A stretch of 64,000 nucleotides of DNA from an uncultured Gammaproteobacteria bacterium (GCA_963847575.1 CAWKAL010000110.1:121-64120), one strand, 5' to 3'. Counted from the first letter of the stretch, positions 10,598 through 64,000 are shown. A program made the numbers and translations. The notes: generated by a model from the sequence alone, not told the origin.

Positions 10598-10612
10598 ATA
10601 ATATCTTGCTGC

Positions 10613-12072: not shown

Positions 12073-12120
12073 AATCAGCGCTCGCCAGCAGCACTGGCCG
12101 CGTTGGCTGGGTATTGAATT

Positions 12121-13881: not shown

Positions 13882-14026
13882 CTGGTAAATATAACGTATT
13901 TTTAGCGCCGAGCTTTATTGTATCGTGCAAATGCACAACACTGTATATTTCATGTTAGCAGCAGAGCTTGAGTTCAACCCATGCATACCGCAAAATTAGC
14001 CGTTTTCTCGCCAGCCTTAGCACCCT

Positions 14027-19141: not shown

Positions 19142-20245
19142 TTAGAGCTTTTCACCGTTATCTTCGGGCTGACGATGGAATACACGCGTCATGCCCTTGT
19201 CATCGCGGGTGATGAGCTTGTTATTCTTTACCTTGTAGCGATAGCGAATTTCCTTGTCGTAATCATCCACCGTTGCCACCAGGTCTTTGATGGTGGCCTG
19301 CATTTTACCACTGAGTGTACGCTCCCCGCCGTCACTCCAGTCGAAACGATTATCCTTGATGGTCAGGGTTTCGCCCGACTCGTTTTTCCATACGCCTTCG
19401 AGTGCCTTTTTCACCTGAATGCGGTCGCATAAACCACTCGGACATATACCGCTTTCGGCAAACAATGGATTTGTAATTCGTCGCGGGAATCCGCCTGCTG
19501 AATAACCGGCGGGATAGCCATTCACACCTGCCGGCAGACGCCGACCCCAGCGATTAGTATACGCATAAGGATTTACATTATGGCTGGCATAGCCGGGCTG
19601 CCAGGGACGGGTCGCGAATGGTGACGCGCCCCACGGAGCCCCGGCGTAGGGCGAGCCACCCCAGGGTGAACCACCGTAGGGTGAACCACCCCAGGGTGAA
19701 CCACCCCAGGGCGAACCACCCCAGGGTGAAGCGCCCCACGGAGAACCGCCGTATGGCGCACCCCCCCAGGGAGATCCACCATATCTATTACCGCGGTAAG
19801 GAGAACCGCCCCAGGGAGATCCACCATATCGAGAACCACCATATCGAGAACCGCGGTAGGGTGCACCATAGGGTGCTCCACCCAACTGGCCAGCGTTGTA
19901 TGGCGAACCACCCCACGGTGACCCGGCGTATGGCGAACCACCCCACGGTGAAATACCGGGGCCAGATAACATCCACGGTGAAGCCCCCTGACCACCCCAT
20001 GGACTTGTGCCCCAGGGTGAGCGACTGTAGTTACCCCAGCTGGAATAAGGACTGCCAAAGGATGCAGGGTAACCGCCATAGCCACCAACAGGCACACGAT
20101 CGAGCATACCCATGGCGACCATCATGTTGATCATCATTTCAACAAACGGGATATCGGTAGTGGAACGGTAATATTTGACGGAGGCAAAGGTACTGAAACT
20201 CGTGGTGAGCATCAGCAATGCGACAATAATGCGTCGTCTCTTCAT
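19142..20245 (-). CDS. Secreted protein with a Met-rich segment, about 165 residues of (G)-S/A-P-W/Y-G pentapeptide repeats, and a small beta-rich C-terminal domain
   Basis: Signal peptide MKRRRIIVALLMLTTSFSTFASV, then EMMINMMVAMGM. The repeat block contains 12 SPW and 6 SPY tripeptides by my count, plus APY, APW and SRY variants. No known family recognised. Confidence 0.7.
   Translation of the reverse strand: MKRRRIIVALLMLTTSFSTFASVKYYRSTTDIPFVEMMINMMVAMGMLDRVPVGGYGGYPASFGSPYSSWGNYSRSPWGTSPWGGQGASPWMLSGPGISPWGGSPYAGSPWGGSPYNAGQLGGAPYGAPYRGSRYGGSRYGGSPWGGSPYRGNRYGGSPWGGAPYGGSPWGASPWGGSPWGGSPWGGSPYGGSPWGGSPYAGAPWGASPFATRPWQPGYASHNVNPYAYTNRWGRRLPAGVNGYPAGYSAGGFPRRITNPLFAESGICPSGLCDRIQVKKALEGVWKNESGETLTIKDNRFDWSDGGERTLSGKMQATIKDLVATVDDYDKEIRYRYKVKNNKLITRDDKGMTRVFHRQPEDNGEKL
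19589..20086. repeat. Degenerate 15-nt-period tandem repeats encoding the SPWGG block
   Basis: Runs such as ccaccccagggtgaa occur many times with variants. All three frames on both strands stay open here, which produces spurious ORFs. Confidence 0.8.
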
Positions 20246-20319: not shown

Positions 20320-21180
20320 GTGTTACATGATATATTCATTTGCAGTGAAAGCAAAGGCCGGTTGTATACAATTATGTCACCTGACCAGTTTATCTCGACT
20401 GTTACCGGCTGGCCTGGCCGCCAGCTCATCCAGCGATTTCTATATGTTGTTGATCTGACTAGCTTTGGCATGCTGGCCGTACGCGACTGGACGCTTAAAG
20501 CACGCCTCTTCGATTCGCGCAGTTACAGCACCATTGTTTCACAAATTATTTTTACCGGCGTCGACGCCCTGCCCACGATCACTTTCCTCGGCCTGCTCAC
20601 CGGGTTTCTGTTTACTTTTCGACTGATCGGAATTCTCGACTCGGTTGGTGGCGCGAGTGACCTGGTCGATATTCTATCTGCCGTCATCGGTCTCGAAATC
20701 GGCCCTCTGCTGGCCGCTTTTATTCTCATCAGTCGCACCGGCTCAGCCATTGTGGTCGATATCGGCAATATGAAACTGCACGGCGAAATCGAAGGCCTGG
20801 AAAACCTCGGTATAAACATCAATGATTACCTGGTCGCCCCGCGACTGATTGGCGCTGCCATCTCGCAACTCGCGATCACAGTGTATTTCACCTTCATCAC
20901 CCTGGTGTTTGGCATAATTCTCAGCGGGGTGTTCCTGTCTTCAGCGCATTTTGAGTTCCTGACCACGCTGGAGAGCGCATTTGATTTTCAAATCGTCGGC
21001 GCTTTCGTCGTCAAAAACCTGCTGTTCGGCTATATCATTGCCACCACGGCGTGTTATCACGGCCTGTCGGTACACAGTTCGGCGACCGAAGTGCCGCAGC
21101 AAACCCAGCGTGCCATCGTAAATTCACTGGTCATCATTTTTATCGTCGATGGCCTGATGGGCATTGCCCTGCTGACCTGA
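20320..21180 (+). CDS. MlaE/YrbE-family ABC transporter permease
   Basis: Polytopic membrane protein with MlaE-like core motifs (..EIGPLLAAFILISRTGSAIVVDIGNMKL..EIEGLE..G). The real start is possibly MSPDQF at about 20374. Confidence 0.8.
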   Translation: MLHDIFICSESKGRLYTIMSPDQFISTVTGWPGRQLIQRFLYVVDLTSFGMLAVRDWTLKARLFDSRSYSTIVSQIIFTGVDALPTITFLGLLTGFLFTFRLIGILDSVGGASDLVDILSAVIGLEIGPLLAAFILISRTGSAIVVDIGNMKLHGEIEGLENLGININDYLVAPRLIGAAISQLAITVYFTFITLVFGIILSGVFLSSAHFEFLTTLESAFDFQIVGAFVVKNLLFGYIIATTACYHGLSVHSSATEVPQQTQRAIVNSLVIIFIVDGLMGIALLT

Positions 21181-21181
21181 C

Positions 21182-21925
21182 ATGGAAACCGCACTCGACA
21201 TACAGCACTGCATTTCGCAGATACCCCGCGCTGACTACAGCGGCAGCCCGATTTCATTCAGTATCGGTCGCGGTGAAATCGTCAGCATCATCGGCCCGGA
21301 CTATAACGGCAAGTCTGAATGGCTGCGAACTTTCGCCGGACTCATCAGGCCGGCCAGTGGCAAAGTGATCAGCGGTGAAATAAGCACTGACTGTGAAAAT
21401 CGTGCACAGTGGGAGCAATTGAGACGCAAGCTGGCTTTTGTCAGCTCGGAAACAGCATTGTTATCCGCATCCAACGGGCTCGCCAACGTCATACTCGCCG
21501 CCAGCTATCACCAGCTCGGCGATAGTGATGACCTGCGCGACCGGGCCACCGAGCTGATGACCCAGTTGCATGTGCAATTTCAGGCTGACGCCCTGCCGGC
21601 ATTCATGCGTCGTGATCAACGTTACCGGCTGGCGCTAGCGCGTGCACTGATGCTGGAACCCGAAGTTCTAATGCTGGATAATCCATTCGCACACACCGAT
21701 GCCGCCGGCACAGGCAAACTCAAACAGTTTTTGCTCAAGCGCGTCGACGAACATGCGACTGCGCTGGTCATCATGTCGCATGACCTTGAATTCAGCCTCA
21801 AATATGCGCAACAGATTTTATTTGTTACGCGTGAACAGGTATATTGTTTCAAGGGCGCCAGTGAATTTCTCGGCAGCCAGGTTGAAAGCATTCGCCAGTA
21901 CATCGAAAAACCGGGGCTGCATTAA
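21182..21925 (+). CDS. MlaF-like ABC ATPase with degenerate catalytic motifs
   Basis: Walker A GPDYNGKS and H-loop MSHD are present. The Q-loop Gln is absent (AFVSSETALL), the LSGGQ signature is replaced by FMRRDQ, and Walker B reads VLMLDN (Asn in place of the catalytic Glu). Confidence 0.8.
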   Translation: METALDIQHCISQIPRADYSGSPISFSIGRGEIVSIIGPDYNGKSEWLRTFAGLIRPASGKVISGEISTDCENRAQWEQLRRKLAFVSSETALLSASNGLANVILAASYHQLGDSDDLRDRATELMTQLHVQFQADALPAFMRRDQRYRLALARALMLEPEVLMLDNPFAHTDAAGTGKLKQFLLKRVDEHATALVIMSHDLEFSLKYAQQILFVTREQVYCFKGASEFLGSQVESIRQYIEKPGLH

Positions 21926-22836
21926 TGGATCGCCGCAATACGCCACGTACACACTATATCCATCGCCTGAGTTACAGCGCCCAGGAACGGATCGTCGGTG
22001 CCTTCCTCTTGCTCGCTATCGGTATCCTGGTCTGGCTGCTGTTCACCGCAGGCTCATCAAAAATTTCCTTTGAAGACTATTTCACTCTCTATGGTGAGCT
22101 CGAAACCAACCAGGCAGTCAATACCAACACTGAAATTATTGTGTCAGGATTAACTGCCGGCAATGTAGAAGACGTCAGTATCAATGAACACAATAAAATC
22201 ATCGTCACGCTACGCATGCTTGAACGTTATCACTCGCTGATTCGCACTGACACTGTCGCACATATCGAAGCACTCAATTTTGGCGTTATCAACAAGTCGG
22301 TGATTGAATTTAGCGTAGGCAACCCGGCGCTTCCGCTGCTGGCCGACGGCAGTAAAATTAATATAGCGTCGTCGTTCGATGTTAAACAGCTGATGGCAAA
22401 ACTGGCACCTGCACTCGATAACCTGGTCAGTACCATTGAGCAGGCTAACCAGCTGTTAACGGCGATCGATCCCGCCGTGGTGACAGATTCGATTAATAAT
22501 CTCAATGCTATTTCCAGTGACGTGCGCGCAATTACAGCACAGGTAAAATCCGGCGACGGCATTGCCAACCAGGTGATTTATGATAATGCACTGGCAAATA
22601 ACATGAAGGCCATCGCCAGTAACCTGAATCTCGCCACTTCTCAGTTCGACAGACTACTCAGTGTAATCAACAAGGAACTTGAATCAGTTCCCGGACTAAT
22701 GAAAAAAGTCGAACCGCTAATTAAAGAAGCTGACAAAACCATCAAGGCGACACAGCGTATCTGGCCACTTTCCTCTGCGATCGGTGATGACAATAAAACC
22801 GAACGCCTGACACCGCAGGCACCGGCCAATGATTAG
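21925..22836 (+). CDS. MCE/MlaD-domain protein
   Basis: N-terminal TM helix, then an MCE beta-barrel-like segment (YFTLYGELE..VSGLTAGNVEDVSI..IVTLRM), then a long helical tail. Its start overlaps the ATPase stop. Confidence 0.8.
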   Translation: MDRRNTPRTHYIHRLSYSAQERIVGAFLLLAIGILVWLLFTAGSSKISFEDYFTLYGELETNQAVNTNTEIIVSGLTAGNVEDVSINEHNKIIVTLRMLERYHSLIRTDTVAHIEALNFGVINKSVIEFSVGNPALPLLADGSKINIASSFDVKQLMAKLAPALDNLVSTIEQANQLLTAIDPAVVTDSINNLNAISSDVRAITAQVKSGDGIANQVIYDNALANNMKAIASNLNLATSQFDRLLSVINKELESVPGLMKKVEPLIKEADKTIKATQRIWPLSSAIGDDNKTERLTPQAPAND

Positions 22837-48462: not shown

Positions 48463-49065
48463 ATGCCAGAGCAACAAATGTTTAACACCGCTATAAAACT
48501 CATCGATGCTGCAAACAGTGAAGATCCCAACATTGAATCCAGCGATGGCAAGGACTGGCCGAAAGAGCTGCTGTATTCACATCGCATGTCCGACATGATC
48601 GAACGTTACGCGCCGGAGGCCGACGATGCGATGAAAATCGCTGTGCGCGCCCAGCACATCCAGCGCTGGAAGTCCCCACGCAGTGACTACCCGATGGACC
48701 GCAAGGGCTACCACCAGTGGCGCACGCGTCTTTACACCTTTCATGCAGACACCGTGGCAGCGCTGCTGGTGAAGGCCGGCTACGATAATGACTTTATCGA
48801 ACGCGTTAAACTTGCCGTCAGCAAAAAATCACTCAAGACCAACCCCGACACCCAGATGCTGGAAGACGTGATTGGCCTGGTGTTTATCGAGCACTACATG
48901 CTGGAATTCGCCGGCAAGCATCCCGAGTACGACGAGGCGAAGTGGATCGACATTATCCGCAAGACCTGGCGAAAAATGTCTGAGCGGGCTCACCAGTTCG
49001 CCCTCGGTGGTAATATCACCCTGCCAGAACCGCTGGTTCCGCTGATTCAAAAAGCAGTCGCTTAA
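48463..49065 (+). CDS. Conserved hypothetical protein (DUF4202-like)
   Basis: 200 aa, all-helical. The motif RAQHIQRWKSPRSDYPMDRKGYHQWRTRLYTFHA recalls DUF4202. Assignment is from memory only. Confidence 0.5.
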   Translation: MPEQQMFNTAIKLIDAANSEDPNIESSDGKDWPKELLYSHRMSDMIERYAPEADDAMKIAVRAQHIQRWKSPRSDYPMDRKGYHQWRTRLYTFHADTVAALLVKAGYDNDFIERVKLAVSKKSLKTNPDTQMLEDVIGLVFIEHYMLEFAGKHPEYDEAKWIDIIRKTWRKMSERAHQFALGGNITLPEPLVPLIQKAVA

Positions 49066-49074
49066 AGTTGGTGT

Positions 49075-49743
49075 TCAGCGCCCCCACGGTACCATTTCAA
49101 CTGACATACATAAGCGCACTGATTCACTGATAAAGTACCGATAACTGTTCATATCAAATTCAAACCGGCTCACCTCGCCCCTTCCCTTCATATAAATTCG
49201 ATCGGGGCGGTGGTTTTCACCGTTCTCAAGTACGCGAAGGCTTATTTCAAATACCACCGGCTGGGTTACACCGTGCAGCGTAAGCTCACCGTGGACATGG
49301 CCCTGTTCCTGATTGTCCAGGTGCACCGCGCGCCCTACGAAGAGGATTTCGGGAAAGCGACTGGCATCAATAAAATCCCGCCCCTGCACCATCGGCAACA
49401 TATCGATGTTTTCTGATTCAAGGCTGGTGGTATGTATCAGTAACAATGCCTGCCCGACTTTCGAAAGCCCTGGCGGCACTGCAAGCCCACCAGTAAGGTG
49501 GGTAAACTCACCGCGAAATTCCTGGAACGGAAAATGACGCACGCAAAAACCCACTTTTGACCTGTCTGGATCTACTCGATACAGGCGACCATCTTCGGCA
49601 GCATCGCGCATGACACGCAAATGCTGCGGATCAACCTTGCCACCCTCGAAGATACTGCAGGGCTGTGATGCCATCACAACGCCCGCGATCAGCATGATCG
49701 TGCCAATGCAAACAAGGCGCGCAAAAGATAGCCTGCTGATCAT
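49075..49743 (-). CDS. YceI-like periplasmic polyisoprenoid-binding family protein
   Basis: Signal-anchor MISRLSFARLVCIGTIMLIAGVVMA, then YceI-like strands (S.VGF.V.H.....RG.F; HGELTLHGVTQPVVFE). The ORF track extends to 49842. Confidence 0.72.
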   Translation of the reverse strand: MISRLSFARLVCIGTIMLIAGVVMASQPCSIFEGGKVDPQHLRVMRDAAEDGRLYRVDPDRSKVGFCVRHFPFQEFRGEFTHLTGGLAVPPGLSKVGQALLLIHTTSLESENIDMLPMVQGRDFIDASRFPEILFVGRAVHLDNQEQGHVHGELTLHGVTQPVVFEISLRVLENGENHRPDRIYMKGRGEVSRFEFDMNSYRYFISESVRLCMSVEMVPWGR

Positions 49744-50098
49744 CGATATGTCGGCATGCAATACGCGTGTTGCAACAAGGTAGTTTCTGAGCACTGAATT
49801 AACGAGGCGCAATAACCCACGAACAACCACCCTCCCAATCATAGATAGTCATGAATACATTTAGACAATTATCAGGATAGTCTCAAGCCTGAAGTGGCTC
49901 GTTGACCCTGATCAAGACAGGACTCTATCCTGCGAGGCGTCAGGATACTGGATCCCGGCCAGAAACATGCCAGGATGACGGGATTAAAGCGGGTTAAGTA
50001 TATTGGTGCCGGAGTAACGTAACTGTAGCGGCCTGGCGCGTAGGATATAAGGTTGCAAACCTCTGCGTTCTCTGTGACCACTGTGGCAAATAGTATTT

Positions 50099-53000
50099 CT
50101 AAATCTTGCCAACCAGGTTAATAAAGAAGCCCTGTGAATCATAATCAAGATCCGTCAGGTCATCCGAGAAATCGGTGAAGTTGTAACCCACGCCGAATTT
50201 CAGGTTCTTGCCGACATGGCGGTAGATACCAAACAGGGTACCGCTGCGCTGATCCTGCGCGTCGGGCAGATCGAGCAGGCGGGCTTCCATCAACACATCC
50301 CACTTGTAGGTAAAGTGCCAGTCGGCACGCAGGATATACAGGCTGGCACGGCTGTCAAAGAACTCCGGGTTGACACGGTCCTGGCTGACCTGGCCGAGAC
50401 GATAGGCATATTTACCGCCAAGACTCCAGCGGGTTGTTAAATCATAAATCGTATCCAGCGACAGTATATGGCTCTTTTGCAGGAATTCGACCGAGGTGTT
50501 CTGCGTGGTGACCTGTTCCGCGGTGGGGACGTTGAAGAAATAGGTGTACTTGAATAATGAATTCCAGCGATCATTCAGGATCGGGCGATAACCATAACCC
50601 AGCACTGCCTCGGTGAATTTACCATCGAAGAATTCCCCCTGTGAACTCTTGCTGTCGGAATGATTCAGCTTGCCGATAAAACGCCAGGCCGGATCGAGCT
50701 GGTACTTGACACTGTTTTTCACCAGCCAGGTTTTACGATTATTGGTGCCGCCGATGGTGTTGTCGGTATCATCGGTGCGGTATTCAAGTGCACCCGAATA
50801 CTGCACAGCTTCATAGGTGTAGGAAGTTTTCAAACCCAGTGCACGGCGCTCGGTATCAGCACCGGTGTTGTCATCTGTCAGTGAGCCGGCTTCGAGTGAT
50901 GCACCGTAGGTCCAGCGATCATTCGGTGCCAGGTCAACACCCAGTGCGTGGGTCAGGCCGGTGGGTACATCACCGTGCGCATAACGTTCTTCTGCGTACA
51001 CGCTGACGCTATCACTGTAACGCGAGCGCACACCGGTGTTCATGTTACCGCGACGTGAACTCACGCCATTATCGGTGCGCTCGTTTTCCAGTGCATAATT
51101 AAGATAAACACTGCTGCGGTCTGATACCAGGTAATCTGTCCCCAGTTTTGCACCGGTGCCGGTCTGGCCGAATGACAGTTCACCATCGAGCTTGAGGTTT
51201 TCGGTGGCACGGATACTGCCACCGCCACCGACGCGATTATTTTCTTCACGATTACCGGTGGTGTTTGCTGTCACCTGGGTGAAACCGTAGGCGGTCCAGT
51301 CTTCTTTGGAATCAAACGCAGCTTCAAATGCCACATCGAAACGGTTACCGGTTTTTTGCGTAGCGGCGATCACCGCTGAATTATCTTCGCGGGTATCGAG
51401 TCGGCCACCTGTGCTCAGGCGCCAGTTTTCATCCAGCAGGTATTCAACATCAGCATCCACTGCCGAGGTGTTGAGTGAATTTTCCTGGTCGCGACTGTCG
51501 GCCTTGACGTTCAGGTTCATGTCTTCGCTCAGCGCCATGTTCAACTTACCGCCGAACTGTTCGGTTTCATTGGCAGTGAGCTGTCCGGGCGCGGAGAACC
51601 CGGCTTCACGATTCTGCGTGTACACGCTGGCGGTACCGCGTGAATTGTCCACCAGGTCTTCGAGCCGGGTGCTGGCCTCGATACGGTAGGCATCGGCCTT
51701 GGTGTTCGGATCCAGGTCCTGATCGAGCTGGTTAAAATTGAAACCACCGTCGTTCGAGTTCAGCGCGCCAGTGCCGTCGCCCTTGCTGCTGGCGATTTCT
51801 GCTTTCAGCCAGGTACCGGCGTTCTTACGCAGGGTCAGGTCGATGCCGTTTAAAGTGTTTTCATTATCGGCTTCATCCTGCTTGCTGGCGGTAATGCCCA
51901 GTTTTACATTATCGTTAAACCAGACATGGGCACGGCCACCGACAGCAACATCATTAATATCGGCGAAGCCCGGGGTGTATTCATAACGCGCAACCAGGAA
52001 CGCCGGGTTGCCGCTGAGTGAACCGTTATCCACCAGCAGGTCATCATTGGCCGTGGATGACAGGGGCTCACTCAGGATCACCCGGCCCTGGATATAATCA
52101 ATATCGTAATCAATCGCGGGCGTGAGGTTTTTCACGCCGATCACAATACCCGAATCCTTGTCACGCACTTCGATACGCAAACGTTCAGACCCGATCAACA
52201 GGTCCTGGTGACGCAGGAAGTAGAGCGAACCACCGGTGCCGCGGAATTCATCACGACCGGCAATGGTGCCCGGCTCGGCGGCGAAGCCATCAACCATGAT
52301 TGATTTTTCGCCGAACTCGGTAGCGCCCATGCTTTCATAATGGCCGTTGGCACCGTAGAGCCCGCGATCGATATGCGCGAGATCGGTATCGGTGTAGGCA
52401 ATCTTGAAATTACCCCACAGGCCAAAGCTGTCGTGCTGGCGTAACTTGACGTAGAACTTGCCCGAGGTCGGTGCGTTTTCGACCACGGTGGAATCATCGC
52501 CGAAGGTCGGATAAGCAAGGTCAGGATCAATTCGACGGAACAGTGACTGCGGATCTTTTTCGATGAAGTTGGTAAACAGTTCGTCGAACGGGCCTTCGAG
52601 AGTGTCGGCACTGGTGGTCAGTTCCCAGTCATCACCGAACTGGCCGTTGGCGTAAAACGCCAGTCGACCATCGACATTCAAATCATTGTCGTAATGCGTT
52701 TTATCACCCGTGACCAGTTGCGCCGGACCGTTGGTGCTGTCTTTCGCAATCGTGAGATCCGCAATGCCCACGTAGAACCAGTCACTCTTGTCAAACTGCA
52801 GCTCGCGCATGTACAGGTCACCGTTGCCCGCGGGATCGAGCACCGCAACTTCTACGGTGTGGAAACCTTTGGGGAAAATTTCTTCAGCGACAAAGGTATG
52901 TTCCGCACTAACCGGCATGCGACGCCCGGCCAGCCATACACTGAATCCCTCGGGTATATTGCTGCCGTTGACCAGCACGGTGCCACCCGCCAGTGGAATA

Positions 53001-55246
53001 TTTTGCATGCCGAGGTGGTTTTCACCATAGCCCACTAGCTGTTCGACGGCCGTGACATCCTCGTCAAACGCTGCCAGCGCATCTTCTTCGACACTGTCGA
53101 CCAGCCATAACGGCAGCGCCGTGGTTTCATCGAAGTTGCCCTTGTCATCATAAACCCGCAGCACATACTTGAGCTTGATCACCGGTGCGGTGAATTTTTC
53201 TATGTCAGCAGACCAGTGCGCGCGGTTATTTTCATCGACCGGTACGATGTTCATGGGTTCATCGCGGGTCGATTGTTCGTCTTCGAAGATGCGCACTTCT
53301 GCATGATGGATAAAACTCGGGTAATTACTGTAGACCTGGAAGCTGACCGCGTTTTCCGCCAGCTCAGTTTCAGTGTCATCCCGGTAACGCACCGTGTTCG
53401 GCCAGGCGGTAACATTCAGTCGTGGACGCATTTCAAGATTATCGAAACGGAACTGGATGTCGGCTTTTTCCAGTGCAACATCGGTACAGCGTTGCAGGTC
53501 AGCAATATTTTTATACGGATCATATTCCGGCACGCCATCGATGGTGATACGCATCAGGTTGAGTGCAAACGGGTTGTGCGCAGTGGCTTCGCGGTCGATG
53601 CGGGTGATATCGAGGCCTTCGTTTTCTTCCAGCACTGCAAGTTCGTCGTACAGCACCTGCACTTCGACGCGCGAGGTATCAAACTGTTTGAAGCCGGTGT
53701 TGGCCACATCTTTCGAATGCACATAACCGAGGCCTTCATATTCGACCTGCTTGTCGTCCAGGCCGAGTTCCTGTTTCACCATCTCCATGGCGCGACGCGC
53801 GCGTGAGGTTGAAAGACCGATATCATCGCCGTATACCATCGATGTACGACGATCCATGCGCTCGTTATTGGTATACCCGGTAAAGCCAAGACGTACATTG
53901 GACTTGTCAGAAATTTCATCCATGAGTTTTTTCAGGCGACTGGTGTAACCTTCCGGCAACATCGGCTTGCCTTCTTTATAACGTATCGCGCGGATCGGGC
54001 CCGAGGGCGGATCGTACGCCAGGGTGATGGTTTCGGCGACATCAGCATCTGGGCAAGCCTGCGGCTCGGCAGTGAATTCCTGAAATGGATCGTCGTGCCA
54101 GAACTCGACTTCAACACGCGTATTCAGTGCGCGGCCTTTCTCGGTATCATTCGAAGCCACCGGGAACGCCGAACCTTTGCCGGTCGAGCTCACCGCGTTG
54201 TTCTCCAGACCCATCGCATCCTGGATGCCGAGCGCGACACGGCGTCCACGCGCTTTCGACAAACCGGTGTGGTCACGATAAATACGTTCAGCACCGTCGG
54301 TCAACGGCAGGTTATCGGTATGGCCGACGAAGTGCACGACAACATTGTTCTTGTCACGCAGGTTGCCCAGCACCTCGCTAATCTGGCGAATAAATTCAGC
54401 AGGAATTTCGGTCTGGCCTACTTCGAGCCGTAGCGGCGACACCAGATTTTTCAGCCGCGCGCGTTTTGCATTGCCGGCGCGGTATTGCAGTTTACACACC
54501 GTTTCATTGCGGCAGACCTTGACACGGTTGAGACCGACAGCCGCGATCACAACTTCTTTATCAACCGCAGTCTCGGTGATTTCGTCGTACCACACCTGTA
54601 CTTCCACACGACGGTTCCTGCGCTTACCTTCTACCGTATCGTTGCTGGCTATCGGCTGGCTCTCGCCGGCACCGTCATAGCTGACGGACTCGGGTTCGAG
54701 ATCGAGTGCGCGCTGGAAAAATTCTGCGGTGATTTCTGCGCGGGCACGCGACAGGCCAATATTGTCACCGTATTTTGCTGTCAGCCCCGGGCCAAGCTTG
54801 TCAGTATCACTGTGGCCAATAAAGTGCACCCGTACATTGGCGCGGTGCTTCATGCCATTGAGCACTTCGCGTAATTGCGTTACCGCGGATTCGGGAATAT
54901 CGGCTTCACCTGAACGGAAACCAATCGGCGGCACTGCATTTTCGAGTTTGAAAGTATCAGCTTTCTTGTCGAGCACTTTCTGCATCTCGACACGGTCTTC
55001 CTCGCGCGGCCTGAAGAAAGTTTCATCCTGTATCCAGAGATTGAATACTTCATCCGGTGGCAACTGCTGTTCGGTGTTCTCGCCCAGCGGGTGCGACTGC
55101 AACTGTAATGCAGGCGACGCAGTAGTGCCTTCAGGCGCATCGTCAAAACCAAGCTCGGCATAGAGCGGCCCTGCCAGCGCACTCAGCAGCGTGCCGAACA
55201 ACAGGGTGTGCAGATATTTGTGCATCGCTCTAGTCATCGAAGCCAC
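50099..55246 (-). CDS. Giant outer-membrane protein: signal peptide, three OmpA-C-like domains, a central beta-rich region, and a C-terminal ~550-aa beta-barrel-like region
   Basis: Three OmpA-like modules are present: HFIGHSDTD..GLSRARAE..NRRVEVQV; HFVGHTDNL..GLSKARGRRVA..NTRVEVEF; GFTGYTNNE..GLSTSRARRA..TSRVEVQV. The C-terminal third shows alternating aromatic/polar strands and ends ..GFFINLVGKI. Candidate starts at 55246, 55237 and 55225 all lie within 17 nt of the upstream gene's stop. Confidence 0.75.
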   Translation of the reverse strand: MASMTRAMHKYLHTLLFGTLLSALAGPLYAELGFDDAPEGTTASPALQLQSHPLGENTEQQLPPDEVFNLWIQDETFFRPREEDRVEMQKVLDKKADTFKLENAVPPIGFRSGEADIPESAVTQLREVLNGMKHRANVRVHFIGHSDTDKLGPGLTAKYGDNIGLSRARAEITAEFFQRALDLEPESVSYDGAGESQPIASNDTVEGKRRNRRVEVQVWYDEITETAVDKEVVIAAVGLNRVKVCRNETVCKLQYRAGNAKRARLKNLVSPLRLEVGQTEIPAEFIRQISEVLGNLRDKNNVVVHFVGHTDNLPLTDGAERIYRDHTGLSKARGRRVALGIQDAMGLENNAVSSTGKGSAFPVASNDTEKGRALNTRVEVEFWHDDPFQEFTAEPQACPDADVAETITLAYDPPSGPIRAIRYKEGKPMLPEGYTSRLKKLMDEISDKSNVRLGFTGYTNNERMDRRTSMVYGDDIGLSTSRARRAMEMVKQELGLDDKQVEYEGLGYVHSKDVANTGFKQFDTSRVEVQVLYDELAVLEENEGLDITRIDREATAHNPFALNLMRITIDGVPEYDPYKNIADLQRCTDVALEKADIQFRFDNLEMRPRLNVTAWPNTVRYRDDTETELAENAVSFQVYSNYPSFIHHAEVRIFEDEQSTRDEPMNIVPVDENNRAHWSADIEKFTAPVIKLKYVLRVYDDKGNFDETTALPLWLVDSVEEDALAAFDEDVTAVEQLVGYGENHLGMQNIPLAGGTVLVNGSNIPEGFSVWLAGRRMPVSAEHTFVAEEIFPKGFHTVEVAVLDPAGNGDLYMRELQFDKSDWFYVGIADLTIAKDSTNGPAQLVTGDKTHYDNDLNVDGRLAFYANGQFGDDWELTTSADTLEGPFDELFTNFIEKDPQSLFRRIDPDLAYPTFGDDSTVVENAPTSGKFYVKLRQHDSFGLWGNFKIAYTDTDLAHIDRGLYGANGHYESMGATEFGEKSIMVDGFAAEPGTIAGRDEFRGTGGSLYFLRHQDLLIGSERLRIEVRDKDSGIVIGVKNLTPAIDYDIDYIQGRVILSEPLSSTANDDLLVDNGSLSGNPAFLVARYEYTPGFADINDVAVGGRAHVWFNDNVKLGITASKQDEADNENTLNGIDLTLRKNAGTWLKAEIASSKGDGTGALNSNDGGFNFNQLDQDLDPNTKADAYRIEASTRLEDLVDNSRGTASVYTQNREAGFSAPGQLTANETEQFGGKLNMALSEDMNLNVKADSRDQENSLNTSAVDADVEYLLDENWRLSTGGRLDTREDNSAVIAATQKTGNRFDVAFEAAFDSKEDWTAYGFTQVTANTTGNREENNRVGGGGSIRATENLKLDGELSFGQTGTGAKLGTDYLVSDRSSVYLNYALENERTDNGVSSRRGNMNTGVRSRYSDSVSVYAEERYAHGDVPTGLTHALGVDLAPNDRWTYGASLEAGSLTDDNTGADTERRALGLKTSYTYEAVQYSGALEYRTDDTDNTIGGTNNRKTWLVKNSVKYQLDPAWRFIGKLNHSDSKSSQGEFFDGKFTEAVLGYGYRPILNDRWNSLFKYTYFFNVPTAEQVTTQNTSVEFLQKSHILSLDTIYDLTTRWSLGGKYAYRLGQVSQDRVNPEFFDSRASLYILRADWHFTYKWDVLMEARLLDLPDAQDQRSGTLFGIYRHVGKNLKFGVGYNFTDFSDDLTDLDYDSQGFFINLVGKI

Positions 55247-58200
55247 CCTTCGTCGCCGGCTTGCCGCGACGCCAGAATACTTCGGTTTCGATTTCGAGGC
55301 GGTAACAACAATCCAGGCCTTCCCAGCGACGTTCGACTTCGTCTTTCACACTTTGCAGGCGATCTTCCACCAGCGAAGGCTCTTCAACATCTGCCAGGTA
55401 GGACAGGCGCAATACTGATGGCGCTTCGATTAATTTTTCCAGCAGCAGGCCAACACGCGACAGCCACTGGGTACGCATCTCGGTGGTGCCGGGCTCGAAC
55501 ACGGCATCGGCCATGTCGAGACGTACCACGCGATGGATAGTGGCACCGAAGTTATACTTCAGCATCTTGCCGCGGGTAGCGCGCTGTACTCGCGGATTTT
55601 CTGTGGTCATGCGATAACCGCTCGGCAGACTGCGTTCATCGAGCTTGATAATAAAGTTCGAACCGCGATCTTCATTCGGCACCACCGCACAGGTGATATG
55701 GAAGCGGCCGAATTCATCGGTCTTGGCTTCGATACCGCGCGCAGTGACCACGCGTGAACTCGGTATTCCCTCTTCACCTTCATCCTGGTAACCGTTCAGG
55801 TTCTTGTCATCGAACACCTTGCCGATGATGTCGGAACAGTCGAAGGTCGGGTCGGGCACGACGCGCACCGTGGCACTCGCCTGCTCTGAGGCGGCTTCGC
55901 CATTGCGGTTATTAATGACCTGCGCAAGGTTGATGTATTCACCTTCACCAACACCGGAACCGACCACCAGCAGCAGCTTGATGGTTCTGACTTCAGATGA
56001 ATTCAGTGTCAGGTTCGGCCAGGTCAGCATCAGGCCGTTGATTGTCGGTTCGGTCGGCACACCGTCGATACGCGCCGAGCCGGCCACGTACTTGAAGCCC
56101 GCCGGGAAGTTATCGACGATATCGAGATCCTGCAATGGCGCTGCCAGCGTATTGTTCAGCGTAATGGTGTACGGGATCAGCTGGCTACGGGTGACATTGA
56201 GCAGCGCCGAAGTTTTCGAAATCGCGATTGCAGCATCCAGCTCCGGATCGATCGGGATATGGTTGTTGTATATCTGGCTGGTGAACGGGCTCGCGCTATT
56301 GCCCAGGGTGTATTGCAGGTAATAATTCGTGCCCGTCGTGCGCGGTGCGATCGAAGTTGCCGGCGCCTGTTCAGAGACCTGGATTTCGCAACGATCCGGT
56401 ACCGTGCTGAGCTGGTCATCTGCACTGCCGGGACAGGTCGGTACGCTGAACGGTGGATCCGTCAGCGCCAGTGCCGGCGGAATTATCACCGAGGTGGTAC
56501 CAACATAGCCCGTGGCCGGTGGCGTAACTTCAATGACATACGCGTCGCCGACATCACAGTTACCGGCCACGCTGAAGTTCATGTCGAACTTGTAATAACC
56601 GTCTGCCAGTGTCACCTGGTTTTGTTGCGCGGGATCATTGAAGCAGCTCACCGGCACCGGCAGGCTGCCGTTGCTTGCATTCAACATAGTGAGCGTAACG
56701 CCTTCGACCGGGGTGCGCAGTATCGAATTGTAAACCACGCCGTTAGGATCAATCGGCAGGTTGAGGTTGAAGGTATTGCTACCGGCGCCAACGCTGATGC
56801 TGCTGATCAGTTGCAGGCCGTCGCTAAACGGCACGGCAGAACTCGCGGAGTCGGCCACACCCAGTAAGGCACTGCCGCCGCCTGCGCCCGGCGCGATAAA
56901 GCGCAGTTCGTATTCACCGCCTGCGATACTGCTCGGGGTCAGACCGATAATGCGGTACTGGCCGTTGGCGTCGGTGAACACGTTATCGAGCAACTGGGTG
57001 TTGAGATAAATTTCTACACTCCAGTTTTCCAGCAGGCGTTCATTGCTGTCGAGCACGTTATCAAAATTGGCATCGTGCCACGCGGTGCCGTTGAGCACGG
57101 CGATACCCGGTGCCGAACCGATATCTACATTGGCCGAGTCGGATGCGTTCTGTGCGCCCGCGTTCCAGCTAACATTGGCGGTGTTGTCGATCATGGTGCC
57201 GTCGGCGAGAGACGCATTCACATCAACTACAAAATTCAACGTGACCGAAACACCCGCTTCGAGTACGCCATAGGTGGTACCGAAATCGGCCGTAACCACG
57301 CCAGCGAGTTCGCTGACACCGTTGACAGAACCGTTCATGCGACCTGAACCGTTCACATAACTTATTTGTCCGGCCACCGGCAGGTTGAGATCGTCGGTGA
57401 TCAGCAGGTTGGTCACGTCGACGCTGCCGACGTTCTCAGCGCGGATAATATATTCGAGCTGGCCCCCGGCACGCGCGACACCGCCACCGACCACCTGCAC
57501 TTCCTTGGTGATGACGACCTGTTGTGCATTACCAATCGCGATCACGGTGGGCTGGTCGCCGTTCTCGTCGTTACCGTCGGCGTCGGATAACTCGTCGGGT
57601 AATTCGTTCGATGCCAGTGTTGCCTGGTTCGTCACTAACTGGCCGGCCGCACCCGTGACTGTTACATCGAAGGTCACCAGCGCTGACCGACCCGGGTTCA
57701 TCTGGCCGTTACCGGGTGTCGGTAATGGCAAGTCAGACGAACTGATATCGATGCCGGCGATCAGCGGAGATGTGCCGGGCACCGTATCGGTGATCGCATT
57801 ACCATTGATGGTGACACTGTCTGCAATATAGCTTGAATTGGCCGGCACGTTATCGCTGAGGATAACGCTGGTGCCAGGTATCGCGCCGGCATTGCTGATG
57901 TTGAATGTGTAACGCAGGGTATCGCCGGTATCAACCACGCCATCAAGCAATACATCGTTCAGCAGGGTCACGGTTTTCTGCACATCGAGTATCGGCAGGT
58001 TGCCAATCACGTCCTGCGTCGGGTCACCGAAGATATCGGTGGACGGATCATCCGACTGCTGTGTCGGGAACGGACCGCTGCCAACACCTTCGCCGGTGAC
58101 AAAGCCCTGGTTGGAAATAATCGTGCCGTTAACGATGTCAGTAGCCACTACTACATCAAATGTAATGGTGGCGACATTGGTCGTGGTGCCACTAGCATCG

Positions 58201-61200
58201 GCGCGCATGGTACCCGGCGTGGGATCTTCCGGTGCGTTGATCAGGATTCCGTTTTGCAGAGGCGAAACCCCGGCGGCCGGATCGGCAATGACGGCACCGT
58301 TCAAGGTGGTACTGCCGGCAACATACGTCGTATTCGCCGGTACCTGGTCACGCAGGAAGGTATTGATTGCGTTTTCGACACCGATGTTTTTCGCGGTGAT
58401 GGTGTAACGCAAGCTGTCACCCTGCGCGAGCACATTGGGATCGCCGGTTAAATCCTGCGACAGTTTTTGCAAGGCGGAATGTTGGTACCGAACCCACCAG
58501 GGTATTGGTGGTGTCTTCGTCACCGAAGATCAGCGGATTATCTGCGCCGTTGACGTTGGGATCATCCGACAACAGGGTGCTGAAGTTGGGCGCTTCTACC
58601 AGGGCCTGGTTGCGTATCAGGCTGCCGCTTGGCAGCACCGGCTGAATAGTGACATCAAACGTAATGGTGACATTGTCCGGTGTTACCAGGTTGCCGACAT
58701 CACCCAGGTTAATATTACTGATATCCACCAGGCCGGCGCCGTTAGCACCGCCATTGATAATACTGTTGTCAGTCCCTGCAGTGGTGGTGATATTTGCCAT
58801 CGAACCGGGGACAAACAGGCCCGGTGGTGTCGTTAACCTGTCGGGTTCATCAGTCACGCGTATGCCGTTAATAGCGACCGGGCCCGTGTTCTGGATAAAT
58901 ATGGTGTAGCTCAGGGTGTCACCCGGTTCTGCATTCACACCCGGATCCTGTCCCGAGGTAGTGTTGACCACGGTTTTCTGAATCACCAGGATCGGCGCCT
59001 CGGTCAACACCGTGTGGTTATCCTGGTTATCAACGACTAAGGGTGTACCGTCGGTGAGTACCCGCGTATAGGTTCTGACTTCACCGACAGCGCCTGCACC
59101 CGCAGTATCGGCACTGAACCATTCGGTGACACCCGCAACATTGGTTAATGACACAGCATTGATAGTATCGACATCGAGGAAAGCATCGTAAGTGATCACC
59201 AGGCGTTCATTGGCAGCAATTATCGCAGCCGGCTGCAACGGTGAAGAGGTCGTGGTAATAACAAACTCGCATGTTGGCGCCGGTGTGTGTACTAGCGTGT
59301 AATCCGTGTTGAGTACCAGGGTGCGCAATACCGCTAGCGCATCATCGGTCACCTGTACGATTACATTGTTCGGAGAAATATCGCAGGTACCGCCGGTTTG
59401 GGGTGGGCCGGCGTCTGTCACATCAGGCAAACGATCTCGAATGGTAATATCGTGCGCGGGACCTGTGCCGGTATTTTCAACTTCCAGTCGATACGCAATC
59501 GGACTGCCAAACTGCGCGATCGCCGGGCCGGTTTTAATCAGCGTCAACTCGGGTTCAACCACGGTCATGTTGCCGGTGGTGACCGGCACAGTCACACCCT
59601 GCGTGCCGTTGTCATCATCGACCATGTTGAAGGTGTAACTCGCGGTGTTGTTAAACAACAGCGGTGGAGTTGCGGTATTCACCGGCTGATTGCGCAGCTG
59701 CACGGTAATATCTATTTCAACCTGCTCATTCGCCGGGATATCAATCCCGTCGGGACCTGAATCCTGGATAATAAGATTTTTCGCATCGCCAACATTGACA
59801 GGTGTCCAGGGCAGCGAGCCCGAAACACGCGTCACGCTGACAAACACAAGATCTGCCGCGGACAGGGCGAGATTATCCAGGATGCGCACGTCATGGATCG
59901 CCGTTGGCTGCACCACGTCCGGAATGGTGATGCGATAGGTGAACGGTTCACCGATCGATGCGTTCAGATTCGCCGGGTTCTGTTTATCCAGCGGATTCGC
60001 CGCCGGCGTCATCAAGGTCGCGGTTGCGGTATTGCTCGGGCCGTAAATTTCACGCACACCGGTGACTCCACCCACCACCGGCACGGCATCATCATCAAAC
60101 GAGTAATACAGCTGCACCTGCGCCGAGTTGGTCATGGTGAGGCCGGCACCGATATCGGCTTCTGCCTGTACGCGGTAGACGATACGCAAGGTCTCACCCG
60201 GCGGAATGTTGTACTGGTTCGCTACACCGGAATCGAAATCCCAGGTCGCGACTCCTGTGGCCGCGTTATACACCGGCGCAACATTAGGTAACACTGTTGC
60301 TGCCACCACCAGTTGTGTACTGACCATGGTGATAGTCGCACCGCCGTTACGCAAACCGACAGGAATAATGTCGCGCAATACCGTGTCATACGCCGGCGCA
60401 GTGCCATTATTGGTAATATCGACGGTGTAATCGATCAGCTCGTTGGCATCAATAATGACATCACCGCCCGCAGGCAATGCGGTTTTGGCAACGCTTAGAT
60501 CAGGTTGTAGTACTGCAATTGCTTCGTTATCAGTTTCCGTGGTGGCTGCACCGAGCGCGGTGGTGTAATCCAGGGTCGCGGTATTGGTCAGCGCGATATT
60601 ATTGACTTGCGGATGCACAAGGTTGAGTACGCGCGCGCGATACACCAGGACAAATTCGTCATTCGCGGTATTGTTATCAGCAGCATTGACGATATCACCC
60701 AGGGTCCAGGTCACGGTGCTCGGGCCGGTGATCGGATTCCCTGCGACCGTGATGTTCGCTGCCAGAATATCGCTATGGGTGAAAGGCGGGATCGCCGCAT
60801 ACGGCGCTGCAGTATCACCGTTGATGCTGACAACACCTTCGAACGCAAGCCCCTGTGGTAATAGATCGCGTACCACCACCGCCGGCGTTGAACCTTCCTG
60901 TACGGTCAAACGCAATTCGTAATCAATAATGTCACCAATGCGCACATTGGCGTCACCCGCAACAAAGGTATCCGTGAGACGTGTTTTCACCACGGCGTTG
61001 TTATCACTGGTGGTGACGACCGCGATGATCGGTGCAGTACAGTAATCATTCGGCGCGGTAATCATGGGACAGCCCGCGCCGGTACGTTCATCTGCAGACA
61101 CACCGTTCAGCGAGGTCCAGTCGGCAAGCACGCTGTTGTTAATCGACAGGTCGGCGAGCACGTTGTCCTGCACCACTACGCGATAGGTCAGTACCAGTTG

Positions 61201-64000
61201 CTGCGCGGCACCGACCGGGATATCGAGGGTTTCGTCGGCATTGCCCCGGCCCCAGATCAGCGGGCCGCCCGGCGCGCCGGCAGGGACTGGATCAAACAGG
61301 GGAATGGCAGCGCCGCCGATAGTCGCACTCGCCGAGCCTGCAACAAACTGCAAGGCCGCCGGCAGGGTGTCGACAATATTGGTATCAAACGCGGTGCTGG
61401 TGCCGTTGTTAGTCAGCGTGAGTACGTACTCGATGATGTCACCACCGTCTGGCGGATCTGTGGCGACTTTGCCCGGCGTGACATTACTCGCCACCTTGGT
61501 GCCGACCAGTAACGGTTCTTCCACATCAACCTGCGGTGCGGCCACCGGCCCCGAAGTCGCCGTGCCGCCGTATGTCACCATTGGTGAAATCCGCGGTCGC
61601 CGCGTTGAGCATGGCATCACCGGCATCGGTGCTGAGGTTGTTTTCGATGCGCGCGAAATAATTGATGCGAATCGTTGGTACAATGGGACCCGGCGTTGCA
61701 TCATTTTCGGTATTCGTCACCACATTTCCGATAGTCCACGTCACCACGCTACTGGCGTTGACAGTGGGTGCGGCAATGGCCGGTGCAGCTCCGTTGATGG
61801 TGTTAATGCCGGAGAAACTATAGGTGATATCGCCGGGATTATTCAGCAGCACATAGGCCGCGTTCTGTGGCAAGCCGGAAGCGGCGAACAGGTCATCGTT
61901 AATCACCAGGTTATTGGTGACACCTTCCGGAATGGAAATCACCAGTTCGAAATTCTTGACTTCACCTATGGTGGGTACGACCGCGGGATTTAAATCGTTC
62001 TTGGCAATGTCTACCGGCAGTACGCTCAGGTTGATATTGGTGAACGTGGCTTCGTAATCATTCAGCAGACTGCCGGCGTTGGGTATCGCACCGATGCGCA
62101 TGCCGGTGGCGGTGCCGTCAGCACCAATCGTACCGCCCGAATTCAATGCGGTGTTCGCATCGGGCAATGATGTCCAGTCTGCCTGTATGGTGTTATCCAG
62201 CACTTCGAGCGGCTGCACCAGCGAACTGGCCAGTATGTCAAAGGTAAATACAAAGCTGCCACCGCTGGCCGCAATTGGCGCCGGTGTAGCCATGCTGAAG
62301 ATCGGTTTGTTTGCGCCCAGCGTGGCTGTATCAACACTGACGTTCGCCGAGTTACTCAGCGCTACATAGCTCAGGTTGGCGACCGCATCCAGATCATCCA
62401 GCACGCGCAGGTTATACGCTGGCGAAGTACCGTTGTTGGTCGCAGTCACCGTCACCGTGATGACGTCATCGGCATCGGCATTCGCGACGGCGTAGGACTT
62501 GTCGAGCACGATCAAAGGTTCGCGCACGGTGATATCGGCGGGGCCAAGATTAATCACCACCGGGTTGCCGCCGGCATCGGTGTAACTCACCGTGACCTGG
62601 GTACTGCCTGCACCAACACCACCGTTGCGTATCATGGCGTTTTCGACGTTGGCTGCCGTGTTTTCGACGCGCGCAATAAATGTCGCGGTGAAATTGAATG
62701 TCGGGCCGGTGGTTAATTGCTGGTTGCCGAAATTCCATTCGACCAGGTTGTCGGTACAGGTCGGCAACGAATGGGCCCGGGCCCGGATCGGGCGGATTTC
62801 CATTCCACACGAAACCCGCAGCTGCATAATTGGTGGTGTCGCCCACTGAATTTGTATAGCTGCCATTGAGGTCAATGGTCTGCGCTTCGATACAGCGGAT
62901 GCCGGGCGGTAACTCGTCACGAATCACGAAATTATTCAGGTTCGATACCGGCATTTCCACCTGCAGCTGGTATTCGATTTCTTCGCCCACGACTACATCC
63001 TGCGGACCCACGAACGGCGCCGCACCGCCGAGTGCAGTATGTGACAGGTTGAGTACGCCTTTCGAATCCGGCGGTGCGACCAGCGCGGTAATTTCGATAG
63101 TGGCGGTTTGCGCCGTGGTGCTGTATTCGCGCGCGCCGCCGAAGGTACCGCTGGCTTCCAGCGGTACATTCTGGTTACCGGACTCACCCGGCAAGGTGTC
63201 ATAGCGGGTGGTCACCGAGTTGAGCAATTGCTGCCCCGGTGCGACTGCATCATCCGGGTTGGCGCGGTAATACAGGAATACCGTGGTGCCTGGATCGATC
63301 TTTTGCAGCGCGGTACTGTTGGCCGACAGAATCGTCACTGTGCCTGCGCCTGCTGCGCCACCGCCCGGGGTGTTGTCCGGCAGAATGGTTATGGTGGCTT
63401 CGTCAGCCTCATCAGCCACGCCATCGCCATCATTGTCGAGGCCGTCAGTTGCCAAATTGGCAAGCGTCAATAAATCGCTTGGATCCAGCACATCGGTAAT
63501 ATCAACATCGTAAGCCGGGGCACGCTGGAGTAACCACCGTCTGGTCGCTTCGTTGGTAATCCTGATGCGATAGACATAATCATCATTGGTATCGCCATCG
63601 TTCACCAGCGGCAGGAAGGTGGTACAGGCAGCACCAATGCCGTTGATGGTTTCATTACAGACATCCTTGATGACTGTCAGGCTGGGCTCGATGACACGTA
63701 CATTTCGCTGACGCAATCCCGGTGGCGGATAACCCGGCGTCGTCGGACCAAATGAAATCACCGTGCCACCAAAGTTGACATCAAAAGTGGCATTTAATGT
63801 ATCTACTCGATTTGCCCCGTGCATGTTGGTGACCGGACTATCCGTATCATTCAATGTGCGCTCAACCAGGTCGACGCTGAAAACTTCATCTGTAGAGAAT
63901 GGATCAAATGTCCAGGTAATATCAGTTTCAGCCAGCGGGGCCGGCGCTGCGGGTACTTTTGTTACATTAAGAATGCCCGCCGAGCTGTTGGTAGTATCAT
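55230..64000 (-). pseudogene. Giant repeat surface protein (DUF11-type conserved repeats, Cna-B/SdrD-B-like domains, TSP3-like Ca-binding motif), 5'-truncated by the window edge, frame broken about 3 times
   Basis: Four overlapping same-strand ORFs (55230..58523, 58417..61704, 61526..62920, 62550..63854) are present, and the last stays open to base 64000. Recurrent ~100-aa modules have G(D/E)T(L/I).Y.(I/L).(I/V).N.G and N.A signatures. Other elements are DGLDNDGDGVADEADE and VFDDKNLNGYQDEGEEGIP. Junctions lie near 58465 (A5 run), 61580 and 62780 (GGGCCCGGGCCC). Confidence 0.75.

Follow-up and report, generated by a model that had tools for sequence, protein, structure and literature searches.

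How does a Gram-negative cell carry a surface fibre of several thousand residues across its outer membrane, and what holds the fibre in place once it is there? The routes that are understood for fibres of this size are type I, type V, usher and type IX secretion. The question is raised again by two adjacent genes of an uncultured Gammaproteobacteria bacterium (GCA_963847575.1 CAWKAL010000110.1:121-64120; this 64,000-nt stretch of DNA is the window analysed here). The pair lies on the minus strand (50099-64000) and comprises the 3′ 8.77 kb of a gene for a giant protein of DUF11/CLIPPER repeats, hereafter the fibre (55230..64000; the 5′ end is outside the window), and a gene for a secreted protein with three OmpA-type modules, a middle region and a predicted β-barrel, hereafter the barrel protein (50099..55237). 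A sequence-only reading of the window had proposed that the two are a dedicated export or anchoring module for a cell-surface fibre, with the barrel protein stapled to peptidoglycan. Our analyses support the proposal, and none of the tests of synteny, of the barrel or of alternative secretion routes refuted it. On the strength of sequence comparison, we consider it fairly probable that the two genes work as a unit and represent an autotransporter-like module, here in its split form, by which a surface fibre is both exported and anchored.

Adjacency and fusion of the two genes

Relatives were sought with residues 560-1715 of the barrel protein (residues are counted from GTG 55246 throughout) and were found in 499 GTDB species genomes. 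Carriers include cultured Microbulbifer species, Thiohalomonas and Biformimicrobium, as well as metagenome-assembled genomes (MAGs) assigned to Thiobacillus, Sideroxydans, Alcanivorax and Moraxellaceae; the nearest relatives come from uncultured Gammaproteobacteria and Thiotrichales-type MAGs. Of the genome loci retrieved, 74 include DNA upstream of the barrel gene, and in every one of them the sequence directly before that gene encodes, on the same strand, the C-terminal part of the fibre (the tail). A further 80 metagenome loci were retrieved with a profile of the most divergent, OmpA-less members, and the tail is upstream of the barrel module in every one of the 58 that had more than 2.5 kb upstream. 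Thus, the tail is immediately upstream in 132 of 132 loci with enough upstream DNA. Between tail and middle region, the 58 metagenome loci encode three OmpA modules (36 loci), two (7), one (12) or none (3), and the other neighbours of the pair vary between loci. The sequence-only reading had staked its proposal on the two genes staying together in other genomes, and they do. Judged by gene order, the pairing is not a matter of local chance.

The genome of Microbulbifer sediminum TT37 (NZ_JAJSAP010000001.1) carries two complete fibre-plus-barrel modules in tandem, 16,075 nt apart (L021 and L022). Over the 6,489 nt of their tail and barrel regions the two show 100% identity, and the second fibre gene has ~3,490 codons. 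This reflects either a very recent duplication or a duplication in the assembly.

In many lineages the two proteins are one. A HMMER search of 1.84 billion cluster representatives (50% identity) returned 3,630 relatives, and the best 150 were examined for fusion. Among these 150, 30 are at least 1,800 residues long, and 29 of the 30 carry the fibre tail and the middle-plus-barrel region in a single chain. The fusions among the best 150 range from 2,000 to 6,889 residues, and the order is always the same: repeats, SdrD_B tail (usually with a terminal α/β module), zero to three OmpA modules, middle region, barrel. Many start with a clear Sec signal peptide (P0246, P0247, P0256, P0260, P0265, P0283, P0300 and P0389). 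In none of 12 inspected fusions does the linker from tail to middle region contain an internal signal-peptide-like stretch (maximum 15-residue Kyte-Doolittle hydropathy ≤1.3), which indicates genuine fusions rather than adjacent genes that were mis-called as one. Two fusions are named in NCBI, from Pseudomonadota and Deltaproteobacteria MAGs, as 'SdrD B-like domain-containing protein' and 'DUF11 domain-containing protein'.

In the window, the two genes are separate but overlapping. The fibre reading frame is open at 63998, the window edge, and runs with three frame changes to a TAG stop at 55232-55230. Both the length of more than 8.7 kb without a start and the position of the stop within 17 nt of three candidate starts had been described by the sequence-only reading, and both are borne out. 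The junction (55225..55246, minus strand) reads ...GGC TTC GAT GAC TAG, and the candidate starts of the barrel gene are GTG 55246, ATG 55237 and ATG 55225. ATG 55237 is the probable start, to go by the sequence and by its relatives: a 100% identical public copy of the protein (P0001; 1,712 residues) begins there, the codon overlaps the fibre stop by 8 nt, a GGGTGG Shine-Dalgarno-like motif precedes it by 5-6 nt, and the stop/start overlaps in relatives are 4 nt and 8 nt. Overlaps of this kind, usual in the family, point to coupled translation. From GTG 55246 the protein would have 1,715 residues. A promoter and terminator scan of 49000-56000 found nothing exceeding background.

Architecture of the barrel protein and the fibre

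The barrel protein has more than 2,000 homologues, of which the full-length ones are 61-85% identical to it; an exact look-up of the protein itself gave no record. Its N-terminus, MTRAMHKYLHTLLFGTLLSALAGPLYA/ELG (residues 1-30; 55157..55237), is a typical Sec signal peptide, as read directly from the sequence rather than by a predictor, and the segment is absent in fused homologues. A conserved segment of ~80 residues follows (31-109; 54920..55156), which has near-invariant alignment columns and is kept after the tail in the fused P0246. OmpA_C modules 1 (residues 110-218; 54593..54919) and 2 (residues 277-385; 54092..54418) match Pfam PF00691 strongly (E = 9e-22; 77.7 bits, with a cut-off of 27.2) as well as NCBIfam models and OmpA domains in the PDB, so that by the PF00691 domain the protein belongs to the OmpA family. 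Three OmpA-C-like modules had been claimed. The third (residues ~414-551; 53594..54007) is divergent and has no Pfam match even at E ≤ 10, yet it is homologous to modules 1 and 2 by BLAST (cross-matches down to 3e-19) and by hhalign (probability 100%). Module 3 has GYTNNE where modules 1 and 2 have GH(S/T)D, and it may have lost or altered its peptidoglycan binding. In public records the barrel protein is called 'flagellar motor protein MotB' or 'OmpA family protein', names given from the OmpA_C domains alone; for a secreted barrel protein of 1,700 residues, the MotB name is misleading.

Beyond the OmpA modules, the earlier description of ~500 residues of β-rich sequence without a family holds for residues 560-1099. 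Two β-sandwich domains (residues ~596-818; 52793..53461) are modelled by AlphaFold2 with a predicted local distance difference test (pLDDT) score of 75-90 (model residues 37-259) and match no family. They are followed by a conserved but poorly modelled stretch (residues ~819-1099; 51950..52792; pLDDT <50 over most of it) with many invariant columns, including the motifs GNGELFLRE and RIEVRDKDS, which were used as search patterns for relatives. The C-terminal region (residues 1100-1715; 50102..51949), in which a β-barrel had been recognised from strand periodicity, is modelled as 33 consecutive antiparallel strands (AlphaFold2 and DSSP; pLDDT ~65-85). Period-2 alternation of hydrophobicity in this region stands at z = 5.1 over shuffles, compared with ~1 in other regions. 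Because outer-membrane barrels normally have even numbers of strands, the count is approximate and we put it at 32-34. With the middle-plus-barrel model, Foldseek returned only generic large barrels (LptD, TonB-dependent receptors; TM 0.17-0.28), so that the fold can be named no more closely than a large barrel.

No Pfam, NCBIfam or PDB-sequence family was found for residues 560-1715, even with profiles built from diverse homologues, nor for the middle-plus-barrel module and the tail. Family searches of middle, barrel and tail with single sequences and two profiles gave OmpA_C or noise (DUF2490, YadA_anchor, TP0733), and a match to a FadL homologue (E = 0.56) was likewise judged to be noise.

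The fibre is a member of the CLIPPER/DUF11 fibrillar surface proteins, having tandem PF01345/TIGR01451 repeats in a very long chain. Its pieces match DUF11 (renamed CLIPPER; E = 5e-25 and 6e-20), DUF7507 (CLIPPER_2), DUF7619, SdrD_B, TIGR01451 (E = 9e-35 and 2e-38) and TIGR04226 (E = 5e-25) in Pfam and NCBIfam, and intramolecular isopeptide bonds in the repeats (Lys-Asn with a catalytic Asp) are predicted at family level, from the match to the 'isopeptide-forming domain' model TIGR04226. The pieces are collinear with intact homologues of 4,347 and 5,022 residues; the fibres of relatives consist of 3,500-5,000 residues of tandem immunoglobulin (Ig)-like domains. Identity to the homologous locus L001 falls from the C-terminus toward the N-terminus (65, 51, 49 and 46%), as would be expected if the C-terminus lay close to the cell and the tip were exposed and diversifying.

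No part of the fibre is better conserved than the tail, with 60-80% identity across taxa; in Microbulbifer, the OmpA region of the partner is 45-51% identical. AlphaFold2 models the last 290 residues (mean pLDDT 86.7) as a DUF11-type sandwich, an SdrD_B-type sandwich and a β-α-β-α-β module. The second sandwich (SdrD_B/CnaB-like; 55533..55850) is supported by a weak Pfam SdrD_B match, by the model and by Foldseek, in which the best matches of the tail are SdrD, UafA and Gram-positive shaft pilins, all via the sandwich domains. The terminal module of ~100 residues (55233..55532; model residues 191-277) has no Pfam or NCBIfam match and is kept in most fused proteins. A Cna-B-like domain followed by an OmpA-like α/β segment had been proposed here, and the succession of a Cna-B/SdrD_B-like sandwich and an α/β segment stands. 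The likeness to OmpA is not established: the hhalign match is partial and weak (probability 48-85% over 40 columns), and Foldseek gave no OmpA match with the tail model, whose sandwich domains dominate the results. Cysteine residues occur often in the linkers and in the tail, which has a CC motif.

The three frame changes in the fibre gene were located against L085, a close relative with an intact fibre gene and matching flanking genes, whose barrel protein shows 93% identity. They are three single-base insertions on the minus strand, two seen as blastn gaps and tblastn frame changes (62760..62770, gap ~62765; 61566..61576, gap ~61571) and the third as a blastn gap and by reading of the sequence (58468..58478, gap ~58473). 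Three neighbours in the window (ApbA-like, APH/kinase-like and YdbH-like) also contain one frame change each (~43679, ~44270 and ~46080) and are intact in L085; the indel rate in this stretch is about one per 3.5 kb. In L085, the closest relative with long context, it is instead the barrel gene that is split (10001-15140; 1,439 + 290 residues), and the fibre gene is whole, which supports frameshifts scattered at random by assembly in these contigs of long-read style. Because neighbouring genes are broken too and the relative has a broken barrel gene instead, the breaks are most likely indel errors of the assembly. Programmed frameshifting was rejected as their cause, given that the breaks are absent in relatives and that the neighbouring genes are broken as well. 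In another locus (L076), the fibre reading frame looks short only because the record contains a run of N.

That the gene carries three such insertions where so close a relative has it intact could also mean that the fibre gene is a decaying pseudogene in the source genome, and the pair a non-functional remnant there. We think this improbable in view of the broken neighbours and of the broken barrel gene on the relative's contig. Moreover, the fibre fragments are open for 400-1,100 codons each and still collinear with homologues, and the fibre gene is intact in nearly all other loci: where upstream DNA is present its frame is open to the start of the locus, ~8.3 kb in loci with a full flank.

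A predicted export route and its rivals

Since the fibre gene runs out of the window, N-termini were read in loci of the split type (L083, L084 and L022, the last from Microbulbifer sediminum). All three fibres begin with a Sec-type signal peptide and have no TPS or ESPR domain at the N-terminus, only DUF11-type matches. The genes upstream of the fibre in the complete loci L083 and L084 are housekeeping genes, with no ATP-binding cassette (ABC), membrane fusion protein (MFP), TolC, TpsB or usher genes among them. Together, the Sec signals, the missing TPS/ESPR domains and the housekeeping genes upstream exclude type I or two-partner export. The sequence-only reading had reported no type I secretion system (T1SS), POTRA/TpsB or autotransporter genes in the window. 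We likewise find no T1SS, POTRA, autotransporter, TPS or usher genes among its large open reading frames (ORFs), and the caveat that a canonical secretion system just beyond the window edge might explain export finds no support in L083 and L084 or in the Sec signals.

After the signal peptide, the fibres of L083 (8408-9118) and L084 (8451-10031) share a cysteine-containing N-terminal domain without a Pfam match, with the pattern APCD...HDL(S/T)SSYCELC.YGY(V/I)TIV(I/V).NPYEGADMT. This may be a distal tip or adhesive domain.

How might the two proteins work together? After Sec export, the barrel of the partner would insert into the outer membrane. The fibre would then cross the membrane once, through or alongside the wide barrel. 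Its variable N-terminal part would lie outside, and the conserved C-terminal tail would remain periplasmic, together with the OmpA modules and probably the sandwiches of the middle region. In the split form the tail would stay bound to the periplasmic part of the partner, and in the fused form covalent continuity would serve the same end. The OmpA modules would fix the base of the assembly to peptidoglycan and so allow it to bear load. If tail and OmpA modules are periplasmic and the barrel comes last, the topology of the fused order agrees with a single membrane crossing by the passenger, and it resembles a classical autotransporter whose linker returns to the periplasm ahead of the first barrel strand. 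So wide a barrel may even let domains that have already folded and formed disulfide bonds in the periplasm pass, as an usher passes folded pilins. This last step is speculation, suggested by the size of the barrel and by analogy with ushers.

Several points weigh against the functional unit proposed here. The barrel model is of moderate confidence (mean pLDDT 61.8; predicted TM-score, pTM, 0.40), and with an odd count of 33 at least one strand assignment must be wrong. The barrel protein ends in ...NLVGKI, an atypical C-terminus without the terminal aromatic residue in which the β-signal of a typical proteobacterial outer-membrane protein ends. The fibre gene has three frame breaks in the window, so the local copy could be inactive. 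Finally, we infer that the fibre passes through the barrel, and it might instead be held by it.

This last point leads to the main rival, which sees the barrel protein as an anchor only: a peptidoglycan-tethered socket, comparable to OmpA/OprF or OmpM, that holds the tail of a fibre exported by the β-barrel assembly machinery or the translocation and assembly module (BAM/TAM) or by a type II system, general machinery with its genes elsewhere. Up to three OmpA_C modules and a conserved tail do point to attachment, and translocation through the barrel is for now deduced from the architecture. There is also precedent, in that C-terminal domain (CTD) proteins of type B of the type IX secretion system (T9SS) are giant adhesins held by PorP-like barrel partners from adjacent genes but exported by another machine (PMC9143113). 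However, the natural fusions place periplasmic OmpA modules between fibre and barrel, so that a chain reaching the surface crosses at its own barrel, and the OmpA-less members retain both middle region and barrel. A barrel of ~33 strands far exceeds what an anchor needs, and the complete loci L083 and L084 contain no other export genes. We therefore regard a purely anchoring role as unlikely. In another reading the fibre remains inside the envelope and forms a cross-linked structural layer, either periplasmic or lining the outer membrane from within, to which the barrel protein and peptidoglycan are attached. Such a layer has been argued for OmcB, a DUF11 protein of Chlamydia. The fibre C-terminus is indeed continuous with periplasmic OmpA modules in the fusions, the cysteines of tail and linkers could be read in the same sense, and the exporter role is so far a prediction. 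On the other hand, we estimate that 3,500-5,000 residues of tandem Ig-like domains are far longer than the periplasm is wide, conservation drops toward the N-terminus as it would for an exposed tip, CLIPPER/DUF11 repeats are characteristic of extracellular fibrillar adhesins (PMC12617251), and a very large barrel would be left without a role. An internal layer thus has a low probability.

The fibre could, lastly, be a type I (LapA/RTX-like) or two-partner adhesin with its transporter genes outside the window, and the barrel gene an unrelated neighbour. In Gammaproteobacteria, giant repeat adhesins are often exported by type I systems, and the window does stop short of the fibre gene's 5′ end and of the DNA upstream of it. 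This reading was rejected, and we leave it next to no probability: the relatives have cleavable N-terminal Sec signal peptides and no TPS/ESPR domain, the fibre ends in a conserved, folded domain and not in RTX repeats with a secretion signal, no ABC, MFP, TolC or TpsB genes lie upstream in the complete loci, and adjacency to the barrel gene is invariant, with the two fused in many lineages.

Returning to an exporting and anchoring unit, a bolder and more tentative proposal can be added, which we hold to be possible but for the present doubtful: that the middle-plus-barrel module represents a new class of outer-membrane translocator, a 'giant-barrel autotransporter' with split and fused forms. 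Its lumen, of ~32-36 strands, would pass a beads-on-a-string fibre of folded Ig-like domains stabilised by disulfide and isopeptide bonds, with the tail acting as a periplasmic stopper and the optional OmpA modules as a peptidoglycan foot. If true, Sec-dependent proteins would have one more way to the surface, with no sequence relationship to type V, type I, type IX or usher systems. The translocator would then occur in 499 species-level genomes at the least, and in metagenomic protein clusters by the thousand.

The predicted barrel would be among the largest single-chain barrels; LptD has 26 strands and SprA 36. A literature search found no description of the fibre-barrel gene pair, and in this respect, as in the lack of a Pfam, NCBIfam or PDB-sequence family for the middle-plus-barrel module or the tail, the impression that the pair is not a described system was correct. 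CLIPPER/DUF11 fibres have been recognised in Gram-negative bacteria only recently, in work that does not give their route of export or anchoring (PMC12617251), and a candidate machine is supplied here, one that always accompanies one large class of such fibres and is fused to them in many lineages. The module occurs in cultured Microbulbifer species, which makes it accessible to genetics and cryo-electron tomography. Annotation could be improved for both genes, which now go under 'OmpA family' or 'flagellar motor protein MotB' in one case and 'DUF11 domain protein' in the other. Short fused forms, such as a P0390-like protein of 2,406 residues, might serve as surface-display scaffolds for very large or pre-folded passengers.

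The remaining genes of the window are housekeeping genes (rho, purK, hemA, prfA, an Mla-like transporter, mreBCD, rep and others). After a gap of 256 nt the barrel gene is followed, on its own strand, by a YceI-like gene (49075-49842, minus strand) that is also present in L085. It is probably outside the module because it is not downstream of the barrel gene in L001 or L002. A 367-residue ORF (19142-20245, minus strand) without a Pfam match at E ≤ 1e-5 lies beside an MlaE/MlaF/MlaD-like operon (20320-22836).

Relation to known secretion and anchoring systems

So, does the pair belong to a known system? Classical autotransporters (type Va) come close. The fused relatives have a Sec signal, an N-terminal passenger and a C-terminal barrel in a single chain, the C-terminal end of the passenger is beside the barrel, and no ATPase or inner-membrane component is encoded nearby. 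However, the barrel here has ~32-34 strands rather than 12 and residues 1001-1715 give no Pfam Autotransporter match at E ≤ 10, a middle region of 540 residues and up to three peptidoglycan-binding modules intervene between passenger and barrel, and passenger and barrel are usually encoded by two genes, so that only the fused relatives are single polypeptides in the autotransporter sense. Two-partner secretion (type Vb) likewise involves adjacent genes for a large Sec-dependent fibre and an outer-membrane barrel protein. Here, by contrast, the partner has no POTRA/Omp85 barrel, the fibre N-termini of relatives have no TPS domain, the recognition element is apparently C-terminal, and the fibre gene precedes the barrel gene. 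Inverse autotransporters (type Ve; intimin and invasin) share a periplasmic peptidoglycan-binding domain, a barrel and a passenger of tandem Ig-like domains, but their polarity is opposite, they carry LysM in place of OmpA_C, and the barrel here is far larger and without detected homology to theirs.

Chaperone-usher pili offer a different parallel. The usher has a 24-strand barrel with flanking β-sandwich domains and passes a chain of folded Ig-like units; the barrel protein combines a large barrel with the two β-sandwiches of its middle region. Unlike a pilus, the fibre here is one polypeptide rather than polymerised subunits, and the partner and its neighbours have no usher or chaperone family matches in Pfam. 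The type I giant adhesins LapA, SiiE and MpIBP are also giant repeat fibres retained at the outer membrane with one end periplasmic. They have no Sec signal, their N-terminus anchors them in a TolC-like channel, and they depend on ABC and MFP genes, whereas the fibres of this family have a Sec signal (in relatives) and a C-terminal tail, and no ABC or MFP genes accompany them. T9SS type-B CTD adhesins (SprB/SprF, PorE) combine a giant adhesin, a conserved C-terminal domain and an adjacent gene for a barrel of their own, and an OmpA_C protein takes part in their anchoring (PMC9143113, PMC12773672). Those adhesins belong to Bacteroidota and depend on the translocon of the T9SS. The pair described here is carried by Gamma- and Betaproteobacteria and by MAGs labelled Deltaproteobacteria, and it has no CTD or PorP family matches.

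As for the anchor, OmpA/OprF and OmpM/SlpA also unite a β-barrel and a peptidoglycan-binding domain in one protein. In OmpA itself an 8-strand barrel precedes OmpA_C, and the reversal of this layout, which the sequence-only reading had singled out, is confirmed: OmpA_C modules precede a barrel of ~33 strands, and there is no OmpA_membrane match. In SlpA the binding domain is likewise N-terminal to the barrel. The same holds for OmpM (PMC10628300). These are, however, stand-alone tethers or porins, while the barrel protein always comes with a giant fibre, encoded beside it or in one chain with it, and can do without its OmpA modules (zero to three). On the fibre side, CLIPPER/DUF11 stalks are a recognised part of fibrillar adhesins, including Gram-negative ones (PMC12617251). 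One such Gram-negative adhesin, Acinetobacter silvestris B9T28_05395, for which there is a crystal structure (PDB 9IFR), is described with an OmpA-like anchor at its C-terminus (PMC12617251), and it shares with the fibre a stalk of CLIPPER and related isopeptide-type domains. In the family studied here the OmpA modules are instead on the partner protein, or follow the tail in fusions, and that paper mentions neither a barrel partner nor an export route (PMC12617251).

Overall, the logic of the pair resembles type V secretion, although each defining family feature that was tested (autotransporter barrel, POTRA/TPS, usher/chaperone, type I) failed. It appears to be an autotransporter-like fibre module, usually in two genes, with an unrelated giant barrel and a peptidoglycan foot, and there is a real chance that it constitutes a distinct outer-membrane translocation system.

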